Of a stretch of 64,000 bases of DNA, positions 29,369-37,477 are shown in pieces; position 1 is the first letter of the stretch, and each line of letters begins with the position of its first letter. The stretch is from an uncultured Amylibacter sp. (lineage in GTDB: Bacteria > Pseudomonadota > Alphaproteobacteria > Rhodobacterales > Rhodobacteraceae). The notes beneath the pieces are model-generated. The model ran no database searches. It had not been told where the DNA came from and saw only the letters and a program-made list of their open reading frames with translations. A program made the position numbers and the translations under genes. The stretch covers positions 608 through 64,607 of the forward strand of contig CAXMSA010000002.1 in the NCBI GenBank assembly GCA_964195605.1, given 5' to 3'.

Positions 29369-30202
29369 TTAAGATTTGATATTGGCCTCAGCTTCTTCAC
29401 CGCCTTCAATAACCAAAAGGTGTAACAGGCTTTCCAGAATCGCGATAACACCCAGATAACAGGCAAAAACATAAGGGCTTTCCATTTCGGCGGTTAATAC
29501 CGCTTCGGGTTCCAACTCTGAAAGTGGCAGGTTACTGTCAGTGATAATCAGTAGTTTCATGCCCTTTTTCCGGGCAAATTTGCAGGCGTTTACGGTGATC
29601 TGGCTATAGGGATGTACTGTGATGGCAAGCAAAACATCCTGATCAGAGGCAAAGTTCAGATCAACGATCGGGTTGGCCATATCACGGGGGACAAACTGCA
29701 CATTGGGCAAACCCAGCCGTGCTATATGCTGAAAATAATAGGCCAAAGCATAGCTGGTGCTGGTTGCTGTTACATAAACAGTGCGGGCATTAGTCAGTAT
29801 GGAAACGAATTTTTCCGAAACCTCTGGCGTCATATGACGTAAAGAGTGTTTCAGGATCGACATCGAATTTTCAGCGGAACTGGCCAGTATCGAGCCTGTG
29901 TTGCCCATTGCCGACAATTCATCCAGCCAGCTGGAATTGATAACCGGTTTTGATGTGGTGCGCAGGGCGCGTCTGAAAGGGTCGCGGAATTCTTCAAAAC
30001 CGGGAAATCCCAGTTCTTTTGACAGGCGGACAAGTGAATATGTGCTAACGCCGATTTTTTCGGCCGTAGTTCTGATCGGATCAAGACCAAAATCTGCGGG
30101 ATGGTCGATCACGTATTTCGCAGCTAATTGCAGCGTTGGAGCCAGCATTGAATACTGTTCCCGCATTTTTTTTAACACGCGATTTTGCTGCGTCGCACTC
30201 AT
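29369..30202 (-). CDS. MurR/RpiR family transcriptional regulator (HTH + SIS)
   Basis: AAKYVIDHP.DFGL..IR..A..IGVS.YSLVRLSKELGFPGFEEFR, followed by an SIS domain. Confidence 0.9.
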   Translation of the reverse strand: MSATQQNRVLKKMREQYSMLAPTLQLAAKYVIDHPADFGLDPIRTTAEKIGVSTYSLVRLSKELGFPGFEEFRDPFRRALRTTSKPVINSSWLDELSAMGNTGSILASSAENSMSILKHSLRHMTPEVSEKFVSILTNARTVYVTATSTSYALAYYFQHIARLGLPNVQFVPRDMANPIVDLNFASDQDVLLAITVHPYSQITVNACKFARKKGMKLLIITDSNLPLSELEPEAVLTAEMESPYVFACYLGVIAILESLLHLLVIEGGEEAEANIKS

Positions 30203-30260
30203 ATCAGAACTTTCACTTATTATTCATTTGAACAGTATAATCGAAAGTCCACGGACTTTG

Positions 30261-30989
30261 CTAGCTGGTTTGTATTTTTACTGCTTCAAGTTGCGCATAA
30301 AACGGTAAAGCCGCAGCCAACACAGCTTGCAACGCATCGCCAACATCGGGCAAAAGCCCTTCGATCCCGGCAAATCCTGTGCTGTTACGCACCGCAGGAT
30401 ACCAATGCGGCGCCCATGGCCCGTCTTGCGGGTGACCACCTTTGGGCCAGCTTAACATGGCCGGATCATAGGGCAGATCAATGGTCGTACATAAAGCGCG
30501 CAGCATGGCTGCGGGATTGGCGCGAATATCGGCGCTGTCGATGACAATGGGGGCGTGGCCCAAGTGCTGTGCAACCTGATCAAACAGCTCTGCCTGTTCC
30601 TGAAAACCGATGTCGCTCAGGCTAGGGCTTTCACGTTTGGCGTGGTAACTGGCAATGACCCTTGCAGGGTGGCGGATTAGGAAGATGTTAGTGACATCAT
30701 GCATCCATGTGCGGTCAAATCTGGGCAACATATGCTGGGTCATATGTTTTTGATAAAACACAGTTCTTTCCTGTGGTATGCTGCCTGTAAGGCGTTTGGA
30801 AATTTCTGCGGGATCGTGCAACCATGTGTCGAGTATCTCGGTGCGCATCGGATGATCAAGGCCGGTTTCCAGCAAATATGCTGCATAATAAGGCTCATCC
30901 CAAACCGCACAGTCGGAGCGTGCGCCAAAGGCATACATCATCGCGGTGGACAGGTTACGCGGTCCTGACCACATGGCGATGCGTTTCAT
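30261..30989 (-). CDS. Sulfotransferase-like P-loop protein (homolog of the N-terminal domain of plant BCAT-like proteins)
   Basis: MWSGPRNLSTAMMYAF..DEP(Y/F)Y..YQKHMT..FLIRHP..WAPHWY. Confidence 0.75.
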   Translation of the reverse strand: MKRIAMWSGPRNLSTAMMYAFGARSDCAVWDEPYYAAYLLETGLDHPMRTEILDTWLHDPAEISKRLTGSIPQERTVFYQKHMTQHMLPRFDRTWMHDVTNIFLIRHPARVIASYHAKRESPSLSDIGFQEQAELFDQVAQHLGHAPIVIDSADIRANPAAMLRALCTTIDLPYDPAMLSWPKGGHPQDGPWAPHWYPAVRNSTGFAGIEGLLPDVGDALQAVLAAALPFYAQLEAVKIQTS

Positions 30990-31894
30990 GTGGTTTCCGT
31001 AGCGATCAGATCGGCATAAAGCGCGCGAATACGCTGGGTGACAAGACCAAGTGTGGCATCGCCAATACTGCGCCCGTCGATCTGGGATACGGGTGTTTGT
31101 GCGCCAAATGTACCAGTCAGGAACGCTTCATCCGCACTATAGGTGTCCACAAGCGAATAATTGCGTTCTAGGCATTCAATGCCGTTGGCACGGCACAGAT
31201 CAATTACCTTCTGGCGGGTAATCCCGTTCATGCAATAGTCGCCCGTACTGGTCCAAACCACGCCCTTTTTAACGATGAAAAAGTTGCACGCGTTGGTGGT
31301 GTTCACAAAGCCGTTGATGTCCAGCATCAGGGCCTCATCCGCACCAGCCTTTTCGGCGGCGATACAGGCCAGTATGCAGTTCAGCTTGGAATGTGAGTTC
31401 AGTTTTGGGTCTTGGGTCATCGGCAGCCCGCGCAGATGTGGCACAGTGGCCAGACGGATCGGACGCGGCAGGGATGGTTTGGAATGTTCGCAAATAATCA
31501 CCACTGTCGGGCCTGTTTGCGATAGAGACGGGTGTTGGAACGGCTTGACCTTAACCCCGCGCGTGACCATCAGGCGGACATGCACATCCGTGGTCATATT
31601 GTTGGCTATGCGGGTGGCCTCAAGGGCGGCAATCACGCCCGCACGATCCATGCCGATATCAAGATCAATTGCTTTTGCGGCCTCAAACAGCCGGTCAATA
31701 TGTTCGTCCATGAACGCCCACTTCCCGTCATAAAGGCGCAAACCTTCCCAGACACCGTCGCCCAGCATAAAGCCGCTGTCATAAACCGAGACCACAGCTT
31801 GTGCGCGCGGCACGATTTGGCCGTTCACATATATCTTGATTGTCTCATTGCGTTGGTCATCGGCGGCTTGGTGGGTGGTGACGTGCTTGTCCAT
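30986..31894 (-). CDS. Class IV PLP aminotransferase (D-amino-acid/branched-chain aminotransferase-like)
   Basis: SVYDSGFMLGDGVWEGLR, PLP-Lys region HSKLNC, GITRQ, EAFLTGT. Confidence 0.9.
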   Translation of the reverse strand: MDKHVTTHQAADDQRNETIKIYVNGQIVPRAQAVVSVYDSGFMLGDGVWEGLRLYDGKWAFMDEHIDRLFEAAKAIDLDIGMDRAGVIAALEATRIANNMTTDVHVRLMVTRGVKVKPFQHPSLSQTGPTVVIICEHSKPSLPRPIRLATVPHLRGLPMTQDPKLNSHSKLNCILACIAAEKAGADEALMLDINGFVNTTNACNFFIVKKGVVWTSTGDYCMNGITRQKVIDLCRANGIECLERNYSLVDTYSADEAFLTGTFGAQTPVSQIDGRSIGDATLGLVTQRIRALYADLIATETT

Positions 31895-32940: not shown

Positions 32941-32979
32941 ATAGAAAAATTCTATTAAACATATTTTAAAATAGAATTT
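32941..32979. promoter_or_regulatory. LysR operator region
   Basis: ATAG-N7-CTAT (T-N11-A) at 32941-32955, overlapped by the 10-bp inverted repeat AAATTCTATT...AATAGAATTT. Confidence 0.6.
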
Positions 32980-33046
32980 AACTAATAATAAGGTTTTTGC
33001 TAAACCTTGTCCAGACAAATAACAAAACGATGAAAGGGCAACCCTT

Positions 33047-33667
33047 ATGAAAGTATATGACATTGAGAATTTCCCGAACCCTGCGCGTGTGCGCATTGCT
33101 TTGGCGGAAAAAAACGTAACGGATCAGGTGGAATTTATACCAGTTGACGTGATGGGCGGCGAACATCGGACAGAGGCGTTTTGCGCCAAGAACCCCGATG
33201 CATCCGTGCCTTATGTGGAGCTGGAGGATGGTACCATCTTGTCGCAATGCACAGCAATTACCGAATATATCGACGGGCATTTTGAAGGTACGTCTTTATG
33301 TGGTGACACCCCGAAGGAGCGCGCGGTGATCCATATGATGAACCGCCGTGCTGAGGCAAATTTGCTGGATGCAGTTGGTGCGTATTTTCACCATGCGACA
33401 GACGGTCTTGGGCCTGATCTTGAGTTACCACAGAATAAAGAATGGGGCTTGGGCCAGCGCGAAAACGCCTTGTCGACGATGCAATATCTTGATGATACAC
33501 TTGCCACATCAGATTACCTTGCGGGTGATGCGTTTTCGATGGCGGATATCACGGCCTTCGCAGGTCTGGCTTTTGCAGATTTCGCAGGCGTGGAAATCGC
33601 CAACGAATTGAAGAATTTAACAGCGTGGCGCGCCAAAGTTGCCGCCCGCCCAAGTATCGCAGGATAG
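33047..33667 (+). CDS. Glutathione S-transferase family protein
   Basis: PNPARVRIALAEK, NPDASVPYVELEDG..SQCTAITEY, YLAGDAFSMADI. Confidence 0.92.
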   Translation: MKVYDIENFPNPARVRIALAEKNVTDQVEFIPVDVMGGEHRTEAFCAKNPDASVPYVELEDGTILSQCTAITEYIDGHFEGTSLCGDTPKERAVIHMMNRRAEANLLDAVGAYFHHATDGLGPDLELPQNKEWGLGQRENALSTMQYLDDTLATSDYLAGDAFSMADITAFAGLAFADFAGVEIANELKNLTAWRAKVAARPSIAG

Positions 33668-33676
33668 GGGATTATT

Positions 33677-34354
33677 ATGAAAATTAATGCGGATTTTGAC
33701 AAACGTGTAATGGTGCATTCCGATGAGCTGGACTGGATTACTTCCCCCACTGCGGGAGTTGACCGGCGGATGCTTGACCGGATCGGTGACGAAGTGGCGC
33801 GCGCGACAACGATTGTGCGTTATGCCAAAGGTAGCAAGTTTCCGGCGCATGTCCATACGGGCGGTGAAGAGTTTATCGTTTTGGATGGTGTGTTTCAGGA
33901 TGAACATGGCAATTTACCTGCGGGTAGTTATATCCGCAACCCGCCAACCACACGCCATGCGCCCGGCTCGGATGATGGCTGCACGATTTTCGTGAAACTG
34001 TGGCAGTATGATATGGATGATCGTACGCAAGTTACGACCGATATGAACAAAAACACCTCTGTTGATGCTGCGGGCCGTGATGGTGTTGCAGTCATGCCAT
34101 TGTTTAGTGACACGCGTGAAACTGTTAAGATGGAAACATGGGATGCAGGGGCTAAGGTTGCGATGGATTTACCGCAAGGCGGTGAGTTTCTGGTACTGGA
34201 TGGCGGGTTTAATGACGGCGTCGATGATCTGCGCAGGCATTCGTGGCTACGCTTGCCCGTTGGCAGTGCATTCTCTGCGGTTGCAGGCGCTAAAGGTGCT
34301 AAGGTTTGGATCAAAACTGGGCATTTACCCTATGCAAAAGCACCGAAAGGATAA
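33677..34354 (+). CDS. ChrR-like tandem cupin-domain protein
   Basis: F.AHVHTGGEEFIVLDGVFQDEHG..PAGSYIRNP...HAP; second cupin lobe at the C-terminus. Confidence 0.85.
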   Translation: MKINADFDKRVMVHSDELDWITSPTAGVDRRMLDRIGDEVARATTIVRYAKGSKFPAHVHTGGEEFIVLDGVFQDEHGNLPAGSYIRNPPTTRHAPGSDDGCTIFVKLWQYDMDDRTQVTTDMNKNTSVDAAGRDGVAVMPLFSDTRETVKMETWDAGAKVAMDLPQGGEFLVLDGGFNDGVDDLRRHSWLRLPVGSAFSAVAGAKGAKVWIKTGHLPYAKAPKG

Positions 34355-34357
34355 GAT

Positions 34358-35041
34358 ATGGCAGATAGGCAACTGGCAATCGTTGCAGGGGTGGGGGCGG
34401 GCTTAGGCCACGCCCTTTTGCGCCGTTTTGACGCGGGTGGGATGCAAGCCGTTGGGCTTGCCCGCAGTCCGTCGACCAATAATAACGGTCTGGATATTCG
34501 GGTTTGCGACCTAAGTGATGTGCAAGCTGTAAAGGCCGTTATTGCTGAGCTGATCCAAGAGTTCGGCGCGCCCAATATTGTAGTGCATAACCCGTCTAAT
34601 CTTGTGATAGCGCCGTTTCTTGAACTGGATCTTGATGCTTTTGAAGCCAGTTGGCGCGCGATGGTTTTATCGGCGGCGGTTCTGGGGCAAGCGATTTTAC
34701 CAGCAATGGTAAAGGCTGAAGCTGGCGCATTTATCGTGTCAGGGGCCACGGCCAGTCTGCGCGGTGGGGCACGATTTGCAGCCCTTGCCTCACCCAAATT
34801 TGCGTTGCGCGGCTTGACCCAATCATTAGCGCGTGAATTTCAGCCCTTGGGTATTCATGTTATCCATGCGGTTCTGGACGGGATTATTGATACGAAGCGC
34901 AGTCGGGAAAAACATGGGTTGGATCCCGCTAAAATGATGCGTCCCGAAGATATTGCCGAGGCTTATTGGCATTTGGCGCATCAGCCGCGCTCTGCCTGGT
35001 CGCATGAGGTTGATCTGCGGCCGCAGACAGAGACGTTCTAA
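34358..35041 (+). CDS. Short-chain dehydrogenase/reductase
   Basis: AGVGAGLG NAD motif, SGATASLRG, KFALRGLTQSLARE. Confidence 0.88.
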   Translation: MADRQLAIVAGVGAGLGHALLRRFDAGGMQAVGLARSPSTNNNGLDIRVCDLSDVQAVKAVIAELIQEFGAPNIVVHNPSNLVIAPFLELDLDAFEASWRAMVLSAAVLGQAILPAMVKAEAGAFIVSGATASLRGGARFAALASPKFALRGLTQSLAREFQPLGIHVIHAVLDGIIDTKRSREKHGLDPAKMMRPEDIAEAYWHLAHQPRSAWSHEVDLRPQTETF

Positions 35042-35045
35042 AGTC

Positions 35046-36107
35046 ATGAATACGGATGTTATTATTATAGGTGGCGGCCTGTCCGGGCTTGCCTTGGCCG
35101 ATCATTTGCAACGCGCGGGCGTGGATTATCTGCTGCTTGAGGCGCGTATGCGGCTGGGTGGGCGGATTAAAGCCGCATCTGTGGGGGATGCAGGCTTTGA
35201 TCTGGGGCCATCGTGGTTTTGGCCGGGTCAGCCGCGCATGGCGGCAATGGTGGACCGGTTTGATCTGGCACGCTTTGAGCAATACGCCAAGGGTACGCTA
35301 TGTTTTGAAGATGAACGGGGTGCGGTGGAAAATGGGCTGGCCCATGCGCCCATGGCAGGGTCATACAGGATAGAAGGCGGAATTTATGCCTTGATAGATC
35401 GGTTGGTTGCCAGCCTTGGAACACAAAATATACTGCTGGATGCGGCAGTGAACGCATTGCGTTATGATAATGCGGCTGTCACGGTTCAGTTGCAAAATGG
35501 TAAAGCCTTTTCAGGGAAACGCGTGGTTCTGGCTTTGCCACCACGTGTGGCTGCGGGTTTGACATATGCGCCTGCACTGCCTGATGCGGCGATGGAAGCG
35601 ATGCGTTCCATTCCCACTTGGATGGGCGGGCAGGCGAAGTTTCTGGCGATTTATGACCGCCCTTTCTGGCGTGAAAAAGGCTTGTCTGGCGATGCGATGA
35701 GCCGACATGGCCCGTTGGTGGAAGTCCATGATGCGACGGACCCTAAAACCGGTCTAGGGGCCTTGTTTGGTTTTGTCGATGTGCCCGCAACGGGGCGGCT
35801 TGGGCAAGATGAGACAATTAAAACGGCGGCGATTGGCCAACTTGGACGGCTGTTCGGGCCGCAGGCTTTGCAGCCAAAACAGGTGTTTTACCAAGATTGG
35901 GCACAGGCTGTGGAAACCGCATCTGATCTTGATCTGGAACCTTTGTATGAGCATCCGGCCTATGGTTTGCCAAAGCCCTTGTCGGGGCTTTGGAATAAAC
36001 GTTTGCGTATGGGATCCACAGAAGTTACGGCAGAGTTTGGCGGTTATCTGGAAGGGGCTTTGGATGTTGCGGAATATCTTGCTCAGGATTTAATTGCTGA
36101 TAGATAG
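35046..36107 (+). CDS. Flavin monoamine-oxidase-family FAD oxidoreductase
   Basis: IGGGLSGL..EAR.RLGGRI, DLGPSW, GGYLEGAL. Start ATG 35046; the track start 34953 overlaps the SDR. Confidence 0.85.
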   Translation: MNTDVIIIGGGLSGLALADHLQRAGVDYLLLEARMRLGGRIKAASVGDAGFDLGPSWFWPGQPRMAAMVDRFDLARFEQYAKGTLCFEDERGAVENGLAHAPMAGSYRIEGGIYALIDRLVASLGTQNILLDAAVNALRYDNAAVTVQLQNGKAFSGKRVVLALPPRVAAGLTYAPALPDAAMEAMRSIPTWMGGQAKFLAIYDRPFWREKGLSGDAMSRHGPLVEVHDATDPKTGLGALFGFVDVPATGRLGQDETIKTAAIGQLGRLFGPQALQPKQVFYQDWAQAVETASDLDLEPLYEHPAYGLPKPLSGLWNKRLRMGSTEVTAEFGGYLEGALDVAEYLAQDLIADR

Positions 36108-36155
36108 GGCAAATGCAAAGCCGCGCGGGCGGTTGGAAGTCATGGGAGATATGAC

Positions 36156-36983
36156 ATGGAAATTCTATCGGAAAACACCTGTTTTGGCGGGGTTCAGGGC
36201 GTTTACAAACATGCGTCAGTTGCCTGTCAGTGCGACATGACATTTGCAGTTTATCTGCCGCCACAGGCCAAGATACAAAAAGTGCCGGTACTGTGGTTTC
36301 TATCGGGCCTGACTTGTACCCACGAAAATGCCATGACCAAAGCGGGGGCGCAGGCTTGGGCTGCTAAATACGGGGTGGCTTTGGTGTTTCCTGACACCTC
36401 GCCACGCGGTGAAGCCGTGGCGAATGATGAGGCTTATGATCTGGGTCAAGGGGCCGGGTTTTATGTGGATGCTGTACAAAAACCCTGGGCACCGCATTTT
36501 AATATGTGGACATATGTGACCGAAGAATTGCCTAAACTGGTGACGGCTGAATTCGAAGTTTTAGAGGAAAAACAAGGTATTACTGGACATTCTATGGGCG
36601 GTCACGGGGCTTTGACCATTGCGATGACACTGCCTGATCGTTACCGATCTGTTTCTGCATTCGCACCGATTGCCAACCCATCCGCCTCTGATTGGGGGCG
36701 CAAGCAATTGGGGGCTTATCTGGGGGCGGATGAGGCGGCTTGGCTGGCGCATGATGCGTCATTGTTGATGGCAGAGCGCGGCTTTCATGCCCCGGTTCTA
36801 ATAGATCAGGGCACGGCGGATAATTTTCTGGATTTGTTAAAGCCGCAGGCGTTAGCAGATGCGATTATCGCACGCAAACAGGCCGCGACTTTGCGGATGC
36901 AAAACGGTTATGACCACAGTTATTTCTTCATTCAAAGCTTCATGGAAGATCATGTAAAGTTTCACGCTGAATTATTGAAGTGA
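36156..36983 (+). CDS. fghA: S-formylglutathione hydrolase
   Basis: LSGLTC, PDTSPRG, GHSMGGHGA, GYDHSYFFI. Confidence 0.95.
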   Translation: MEILSENTCFGGVQGVYKHASVACQCDMTFAVYLPPQAKIQKVPVLWFLSGLTCTHENAMTKAGAQAWAAKYGVALVFPDTSPRGEAVANDEAYDLGQGAGFYVDAVQKPWAPHFNMWTYVTEELPKLVTAEFEVLEEKQGITGHSMGGHGALTIAMTLPDRYRSVSAFAPIANPSASDWGRKQLGAYLGADEAAWLAHDASLLMAERGFHAPVLIDQGTADNFLDLLKPQALADAIIARKQAATLRMQNGYDHSYFFIQSFMEDHVKFHAELLK

Positions 36984-37477
36984 TACGATCTCGCGCCTGA
37001 AGAGTTGCTTGGCAACCTTTTCGGGGTCTTCCTCATAATTTCTTGCAGCCGTATGGCCCGCTTAGACTGCGCCTGCAATCAGGCTGTGGCTGGCGGCGTC
37101 GTCGATCAGTTCTAACGTTTGAAGTTTTGTATCGCTTATTATCAGCGTGTCATAAAGATTGTTGTGGCGGGTGCGTTTTGTGACCAGAAAAACCGCGCCG
37201 CAGGTGATGTCTTGTAATTGCCCTGAATAGGTGCAGGCCAGTTTGCAACCCGTGGCACTGATCGCGGCCAATTCTTGGTTTGTGTGAATTTTACATTCTT
37301 CGGTGCTGACAACGCCCCAATCACCTTCTGCTTTCATTGCATACATGGCGGCGTGGGCTTGTGGTCTGACATGGCCCATGCCGCAACAATGCGGGAATTG
37401 ATAGAAGCGGTTTGGTGCGGTGACTGGGCCGATTTTTACTGGTTCGAACAGGATGGAATATTTATTATTATCGGCAT
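36972..37477 (-). pseudogene. Trimethylamine/histamine dehydrogenase-like flavoprotein pseudogene with a large internal deletion
   Basis: N-terminus YSILFEPVKIGPVTAPNRFYQFPHCCGMGH..KAEGDWGVVSTEECKIH joined in frame to C-terminal-type sequence LVTKR..LY..LIAGAV*AGHTAAR..FRRE. Frameshift just after ATG 37477 and in-frame TAA at 37062-37064. Confidence 0.8.

Follow-up and report, generated by a model that had tools for sequence, protein, structure and literature searches.

The window analyzed here, a 64,000-nucleotide stretch of contig CAXMSA010000002.1 from an uncultured Amylibacter sp. (Rhodobacteraceae), contains a row of five same-strand genes that ends with fghA, the gene for S-formylglutathione hydrolase, and is preceded by a divergent gene for a LysR-family regulator. 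We consider it likely that this locus is a composite, in which a cupin-oxidase module is followed by a relocated housekeeping fghA that probably has its own promoter and still serves the FrmA pathway. The gene order, established from open reading frame (ORF) calls and from Pfam and NCBIfam profile matches, is LysR (divergent), a Gtt2-type glutathione S-transferase (GST), a ChrR-like bicupin, a protein resembling the short-chain dehydrogenases/reductases (SDR), a 353-aa flavoprotein of the monoamine oxidase (MAO) family, and FghA (Table 1). The first-pass annotation of this DNA had described a tightly packed operon without frmA. The packing was borne out by the ORF calls and domain matches, the gaps between the five genes from GST to FghA being 9, 3, 4 and 48 bp, and no gene for a class III alcohol dehydrogenase (FrmA) lies next to the five-gene set. 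The host of the window is an Amylibacter-like metagenome-assembled genome (MAG) of 2.63 Mb and 94.6% completeness, denoted G000 in the comparisons below.

The FghA of the window covers positions 1-274 of the 275 positions of the TIGR02821 model, and contains the motifs GHSMGG, with the GxSxG-type nucleophile, and DHSYFF, with the C-terminal His, which we take to be the motifs of the catalytic triad. Matches to this protein (E <= 1e-40) were detected in 112 of the 114 genomes of the family, mostly in a single copy and with 57-75% identity to the window FghA, which, by sequence comparison, is orthologous to the housekeeping fghA of related genomes.

The frmA gene of the same genome (TIGR02818, 599.8 bits) is located on contig C66, separate from the window contig. 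A gor-like gene for a 447-aa pyridine-nucleotide-disulfide oxidoreductase begins 9 bp downstream of frmA, without fghA in between (L003:2-2464). The neighborhoods of fghA were compared across 21 loci of the genus and 28 loci of the family outside it. The gene is found beside frmA and/or gor in 12 and 13 of these, respectively, and among the searched relatives with frmA or gor next to fghA, most show the order frmA-fghA-gor (tightly spaced in genome G023), sometimes with one extra small gene between the outer two. The three genomes G000, G001 and G009 have gor directly after frmA, and fghA is absent from this place; no fghA remnant was found between the two genes in these genomes or in G024. 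Location of fghA behind the oxidase gene was observed only in G000, G001 and G009, the MAGs behind loci L011 and L013, and the metagenome contig L145.

In a maximum likelihood tree of 51 FghAs, the six proteins of the oxidase locus form one clade (support 100/99), whose sister group (92/91) consists of FghAs from the same genus, among them several encoded next to frmA. Five members of this clade are encoded behind the oxidase, and the sixth, from MAG G019, is encoded at the same site after a deletion that is described below. A single clade nested among FghAs of the same genus is most simply explained by a single move of the ortholog that took place inside the genus. Judged by the tree and the gene neighborhoods, fghA is an ordinary housekeeping copy that was relocated, most likely once, within one Amylibacter subclade, and this relocation accounts for the missing adjacent frmA. 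As in the known frmA-fghA systems (frmRAB and flhA-fghA), the window genome encodes a full-scoring FghA along with FrmA, and relatives have the two genes side by side; in contrast to these systems, the window fghA has left the frmA locus and stands behind an unrelated operon, so that the adjacency is lost. The case is a natural example of the break-up of an operon with re-insertion, whereby frmA-fghA-gor was converted to frmA-gor, with fghA placed elsewhere.

A natural deletion in the sister MAG G019 provides further evidence on the relation between fghA and the upstream genes. At this locus (L091, contig C35 of G019, junction 1318-1413), the aminotransferase gene is joined via 95 nt to the sequence that corresponds to window position 36066 onwards. 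The genes for LysR, GST, the cupin and the SDR-like protein are gone, as is nearly the whole oxidase gene, of which only the last ~45 nt, now next to unrelated DNA, are kept together with an intact fghA. No copy of the cupin or the oxidase turned up in the rest of this 83%-complete MAG. The retained segment, 36066-36110, is the most conserved 45-nt window of the oxidase gene, with 84% of the columns identical in five relatives, compared to the typical 30-75% elsewhere in the gene, and encodes the C-terminal tail, which is variable in more distant homologs of the oxidase. From the conservation of this segment and its retention in G019, we infer a cis element in the 3' end of the oxidase gene, most simply the promoter of fghA. 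Thus, the fghA promoter is probably located inside the oxidase gene.

Several points weigh against a separate fghA unit. A pattern scan of the 48-bp gap between the oxidase gene and fghA called neither a terminator nor a sigma-70 promoter, so co-transcription of the two genes is possible and operon read-through into fghA may occur. The conserved 3' end of the oxidase gene likewise yielded no sigma-70 promoter call in a consensus scan. The short gap is kept in four aligned relatives, which could reflect selection for linkage. The loss of the module from G019 may be less secure than it appears, given that the incompleteness of this MAG (83% complete) and a possibly chimeric contig weaken the absence. 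N-demethylating enzymes of the MAO family release formaldehyde, which would indirectly link FghA to the module, and the biochemical roles of the cupin, the oxidase and the SDR-like protein are surmised from family membership and gene neighbors. In addition, contig C227 of G000 (L002:1-384, minus strand) carries a second FghA-like fragment that matches TIGR02821 positions 15-141, is located at the end of this 654-bp contig and is ~58-63% identical to the FghA of the window and to other Rhodobacteraceae FghAs. This fragment may be a paralogue or come from a contaminating contig; therefore, that the window harbors the only full-length fghA copy is a statement at the level of the assembly.

The first-pass annotation had interpreted the five genes as a single glutathione pathway, in which GST, the cupin, the SDR and the oxidase turn an amine or aromatic compound into a formyl-glutathione-type thioester that FghA hydrolyzes without FrmA. 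The co-directional, tightly spaced genes with no terminator detected ahead of fghA, as well as the identical six-gene order in L145, are compatible with this scheme, which we nevertheless consider very improbable. FghA linkage is confined to one subclade: it was observed in 2 of the 80 cupin-centred loci, both from Amylibacter MAGs, and in 1 of the 80 oxidase-centred loci (L145, of the lineage of the window). Furthermore, most of the cupin-oxidase loci have no GST, both Ser and Tyr of the catalytic set are missing from the SDR-like protein, FghA is the housekeeping ortholog moved from its former site, and fghA was kept alone in G019. Hence the claim that FghA completes a thioester pathway was not upheld: the orphan fghA in this operon is a relocated housekeeping gene and not a sign of a new glutathione-thioester pathway. 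Two observations had been named in advance as speaking against the proposed pathway, namely, a gene set that is not conserved together and an independently transcribed fghA. The former is evident from the neighborhood counts; the latter is suggested by the G019 deletion and the 45 conserved nucleotides.

Alternatively, fghA could have been retained at this site because of formaldehyde made by its neighbors, namely, the oxidase acting as an N-demethylase and a convergent enzyme of the trimethylamine dehydrogenase (TMADH) family, so that FghA would be the local partner of a distant FrmA. Flavin amine oxidases of the LSD1 and sarcosine oxidase types release formaldehyde, as does TMADH, and this background speaks for a local source, as do the maintenance of the oxidase-fghA gap in the aligned relatives and the intact TMADH-family genes (Oxidored_FMN and Pyr_redox_2 domains, 685-687 aa) that are convergent to fghA in L145 (6925-8982, minus strand) and L013 (9670-11733, minus strand). 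However, only a remnant of this gene is present at the same position in the window, where fghA is intact; in G019, fghA persists without the oxidase; the use of N-methyl substrates by either enzyme is unsupported; and FrmA, on which FghA depends, stayed behind. We therefore regard retention for local formaldehyde as unlikely. The intact TMADH-family genes in L145 and L013 overlap the 3' end of fghA by ~12 nt.

The composition of the module itself was analyzed in two sets of loci: a cupin-centred set, comprising the best 80 genome loci of at least 560 relatives, of which 71 have flanks on both sides, and an oxidase-centred set of 80 metagenome loci. Among the 71 loci with two flanks, the cupin is accompanied by GST only in 32, by the oxidase only in 19, by both in 7 and by neither in 13; GST, cupin, SDR and oxidase occur together in only two, which belong to the seven loci with GST and oxidase. 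Conversely, 32 of the 38 oxidases with at least 47% identity are encoded together with the cupin, which is located directly upstream in 27 cases and separated by the SDR gene in 5; two more of the 38 show only the SDR gene before the contig ends. Oxidases with 40-44% identity have no consistent partner gene. The most common neighboring regulator is TetR (38 members, and ~15 oxidase-centred loci). Accessory genes that join the TetR-cupin-SDR-oxidase cluster in some metagenome loci are those for DJ-1/PfpI, in three loci (L165, L213 and L223), and for a transporter of the major facilitator superfamily (MFS), in three others (L166, L173 and L174). Thus, the recurrent unit is the cupin-oxidase core, to which GST, the SDR-like protein, DJ-1/PfpI and MFS genes are optional additions.

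Within Amylibacter, the block varies from GST-cupin-SDR-oxidase-TetR through cupin-SDR-oxidase-fghA, LysR|GST-cupin-oxidase-fghA and cupin-oxidase to complete absence, and in G023, the cupin-SDR-oxidase block is ~485 kb away from frmA-fghA-gor. The cupin-oxidase pair occurs in marine Alphaproteobacteria and Gammaproteobacteria, with further cases in MAGs that were classified as Chloroflexota and Polyangiales. Of the function originally proposed for these genes, the part that stands is that GST, cupin, SDR and oxidase belong to a recurrent regulated module, for which an amine or a different small molecule is a plausible substrate, whereas FghA is probably not part of it.

The flavoprotein has several hallmarks of the MAO family, namely, the PF01593 domain score, the N-terminal dinucleotide-binding motif (GGGLSG), the MAO fold and the conserved Lys. 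It aligns with putrescine oxidase (PuO) and MAO in two blocks, query residues 1 to ~101 and then 107-351, the latter against chain residues ~208-449, and a segment of ~100 residues in the substrate domain (PuO ~103-208) is missing. The AlphaFold2 model (pLDDT 93.9) matches 2yg7 and 8p84 in a Foldseek comparison with an E-value of 5e-33 and TM-scores of 0.84-0.87 for the query and 0.67-0.69 for the target. Lys198 is invariant and aligned with the Lys of the 'IKV..Y..PFW' motif of PuO and MAO, which we take to be the conserved active-site Lys near flavin N5. Of the aromatic cage, the Tyr of GGY is present, the position aligned with the 'GCY' segment is non-aromatic, and the nearby Asp296 is invariant. 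Both the substrate-binding domain and the aromatic cage, which normally has two residues, are therefore incomplete. In summary of the comparison with putrescine oxidase (2yg3-2yg7) and MAO (8p84, MAO-A/B), the FAD-binding fold with GxGxxG is shared, as are the motif around the active-site Lys and GGY...EGA at the C-terminus, but the window protein is ~100 residues shorter, has one cage position replaced next to the invariant Asp, and is nearly always encoded after the bicupin. It belongs to a large family of ~350-aa proteins in ESM Atlas clusters that carry the generic name "flavin monoamine oxidase family"; the ESM Atlas name of the cupin is equally generic, "cupin domain-containing".

Two rare fusion proteins, P0002 of Falsirhodobacter sp. 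(693 aa) and P0001, combine an N-terminal oxidase with a C-terminal medium-chain alcohol dehydrogenase of the Zn type, and in P0004, the oxidase is fused to the membrane domain DUF2339. The P0002 fusion points to an NAD(P) enzyme as a functional partner of the oxidase. No oxidase-cupin fusion was found among the fusions of at least 619 aa, a range that lies above the ~580 aa expected for such a protein.

The bicupin is most similar to Maqu_0586 (PDB 3o14; E-value 2.6e-81, 57% identity), and its AlphaFold2 model (pLDDT 94.7) superimposes on this structure with a TM-score of 0.95; the next-best structure matches are ureidoglycine aminohydrolase, quercetinases and pirins. The N-terminal barrel contains the metal motif H58-x-H60-x3-E64...H94, with these residues invariant in the family, and the C-terminal barrel is degenerate. 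Structure 3o14 is labelled 'anti-ECF sigma factor ChrR' (ECF, extracytoplasmic function), and the window protein shares with it and with the ChrR cupin domain the Cupin_7 family and the His/Glu metal motif of cupins generally. It differs from ChrR in that it is a stand-alone protein without the zinc-binding anti-sigma domain, encoded beside GST and/or the flavoprotein. The ChrR model TIGR02451 scores 35.3 bits against a cut-off of 124.5, and only the cupin part of the model (positions 106-190) is matched. The identity of the bicupin as a ChrR anti-sigma factor was ruled out, given that the protein consists of two cupin barrels and lacks the N-terminal zinc-binding domain.

A related possibility is that the module belongs to the sigma-E/ChrR response to singlet oxygen and lipid damage, with the cupin sensing or processing an oxidized lipid and the oxidase-fold protein being a UfaD-like fatty-acyl desaturase. 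The ChrR-controlled RSP1091-1087 operon of Rhodobacter sphaeroides encodes UfaD and UfaO for the synthesis of furan fatty acids (PMC7380195), a precedent that, together with the membership of the bicupin in the ChrR cupin family and the presence of Gtt2-type GSTs and DJ-1, would fit an oxidative-stress theme. We find this assignment highly improbable, because the bicupin has no anti-sigma domain, the regulators are TetR or LysR with no ECF sigma gene seen adjoining the module, and the flavoprotein, with its conserved Lys, is closest to putrescine oxidase and MAO among the structure matches, UfaD being outside this comparison.

The chance that the cupin is a DddQ/DddU-type lyase of dimethylsulfoniopropionate (DMSP), and that the cluster handles DMSP or acrylate, appears close to negligible. 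DddU is known from Amylibacter, and roseobacters frequently carry DMSP lyases of the cupin type (PMC11497337), so that the genus is the right one, and the GST could detoxify acrylate-type electrophiles. However, the metal and catalytic residues of DddU are His146, Glu150, Tyr152 and His185 (PMC11497337), whereas the motif of the bicupin, H58-x-H60-x3-E64-E65-F66 (HVHTGGEEF), has no Tyr two residues past the Glu. The gene context is also unlike that of DddU, whose ddd-acu cluster includes genes for a CoA-transferase, an enoyl-CoA hydratase and an ABC transporter (PMC11497337). The motif and the context together rule out this identity for the bicupin.

The GST aligns over its full length with bacterial PDB 4n0v (E-value 2.7e-88) and yeast Gtt2 (3erf, 1.1e-67, query residues 2-204), and its gene is located directly upstream of the cupin gene in 39 of the 77 cupin-centred loci with enough flank. 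The equivalent of Gtt2 His133 is present as His115, in an FHHAT segment. In contrast to Gtt2, where Ser129 is reportedly the water-fixing residue, both the window GST (Gly111) and 4n0v have Gly at this position, so that the Ser129 equivalent is missing.

The SDR-like protein retains the Gly-rich NAD(P) motif of the GxGxGxG type at residues 11-17, Arg36 and Lys147. In alignments to sulfoquinovose (SQ) dehydrogenase and FabG, Ala130 is opposite the catalytic Ser and Leu143 opposite the catalytic Tyr. Across 25 relatives, position 143 is occupied by Phe in 19, Leu in 3 and Tyr in 3, and position 130 by Ala in 22 and Ser in 3. Thus, the Rossmann fold and the cofactor motif of classical SDRs are present, and of the Ser-Tyr-Lys (YxxxK) set, Lys147 alone remains, which makes it unlikely that this protein is a classical dehydrogenase. 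The closest structure, 3h7a, is itself a member of the same subfamily without Ser and Tyr and has no assigned function. The oxidase-linked SDR subfamily, 3h7a included, also shares a conserved C-terminal extension ending in ...QPxSAWSxE..RP.

The first-pass annotation had placed the operon under a divergent LysR with a T-N11-A dyad, and this arrangement was confirmed. The regulator starts at Met13 of the 328-aa ORF, because the HTH_1 and NCBIfam models begin at residues 13-15, and has no NCBIfam equivalog match above the cut-off. It shows the features of LysR-type regulation, namely, HTH_1 and LysR substrate domains, a divergent target and a T-N11-A dyad. The arms of the dyad, 32942-32956 and 32970-32984, are 87% complementary and lie within the 120-bp LysR-GST interval. 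Of the loci with the module, only those of the window, L013 and L145 have the LysR gene, TetR taking its place in other lineages; in L145 and L013, the T-N11-A core of the 15-nt inverted repeat is kept, and the intergenic DNA around it has diverged.

Taken together, these features are best explained by a scheme of two units. Unit 1 would be a mobile, regulator-controlled module with a core of the metal-binding ChrR-like bicupin followed by the shortened MAO-family flavoprotein, extended in the lineage of the window by the Gtt2-type GST and the atypical SDR-fold protein, presumed to bind NADP(H), with the divergent LysR in control. An amine would relieve repression or activate the regulator; the flavoprotein would then oxidize a C-N bond to an imine, yielding a reactive carbonyl together with ammonia (or an amine) and either H2O2 or a reduced acceptor. 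As a metallo-enzyme, the cupin could act on the imine or carbonyl, or on the substrate, and the accessory GST, DJ-1 and SDR-like proteins, along with efflux, might handle electrophilic by-products. Unit 2 would be fghA, which left frmA-fghA-gor in one Amylibacter subclade and landed between Unit 1 and the convergent TMADH-like gene, where it would be transcribed from its own promoter in the 3' end of the oxidase gene, FghA still serving formaldehyde detoxification together with FrmA, whose gene lies at another place in the genome.

It is a tentative proposal, to which we give somewhat less than an even chance, that the bicupin and the truncated MAO-type flavoprotein, often with the Ser/Tyr-less SDR-fold protein and the Gtt2-type GST, constitute an undescribed two-enzyme system for a new amine-processing or detoxifying reaction. 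The cupin may replace or complement the missing segment of the substrate domain, and the SDR-like protein may be a partner that binds NADP(H) and not a dehydrogenase. No papers were found in literature searches for PF12973 or for the combination of ChrR, cupin, amine oxidase and GST, a weak indication that the module is undescribed. In gene content, the module resembles clusters of the nemRA-gloA and yhaJ-yhaK types, which presumably function in TetR- or LysR-controlled detoxification of electrophiles and reactive carbonyls and might be a parallel to it: a ligand-responsive regulator is found beside redox and glutathione enzymes, a bicupin, DJ-1/PfpI and efflux genes. These clusters are not known to have a flavoprotein of the amine-oxidase fold, which in the window is part of the core. 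Three of the four module proteins have close solved structures without an assigned function (3o14, 4n0v and 3h7a), two have an unusual active-site architecture, and the module is widely recurrent, which makes the cupin-short oxidase module a sensible candidate for the discovery of new functions in marine bacteria.

Table 1. Features of the composite locus, with positions in the window
Feature	Position	Strand	Evidence or description
LysR-family regulator, 316 aa	31976-32926	-	HTH_1 2.3e-19, LysR_substrate 1.8e-16
Inverted repeat with T-N11-A core, candidate LysR operator	32942-32984		15-nt arms, 13 nt apart
Gtt2-class glutathione S-transferase	33047-33667	+	GST_N and GST_C
Stand-alone ChrR-like bicupin	33677-34354	+	Cupin_7 2.5e-42
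Atypical SDR-fold protein	34358-35041	+	adh_short 1.8e-22 (80 bits)
Short MAO/putrescine-oxidase-family flavoprotein, 353 aa	35046-36107	+	Amino_oxidase 1.3e-39, 137 bits vs cut-off 19.8
3' end of the oxidase gene, 45 nt, candidate promoter or regulatory element for fghA	36066-36110	+	Conservation and retention in G019
fghA, S-formylglutathione hydrolase	36156-36983	+	TIGR02821 429.9 bits vs cut-off 281.7
Remnant of a TMADH-family gene (old yellow enzyme (OYE) and Pyr_redox_2), convergent with fghA	36972-37477	-	N-terminal FEPVKIGP...PHCCGMG-type stretch read on the minus strand

The start of the oxidase gene was assigned to the ATG at 35046, 4 bp past the SDR stop, and not to a TTG further upstream. 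On the other side of the LysR gene, the genes for RpiR, a sulfotransferase-fold protein and the class IV aminotransferase (30589-31894) occupy positions 29369-31894 on the minus strand; these three genes keep their synteny throughout Amylibacter and mark the left-hand limit of the variable block.

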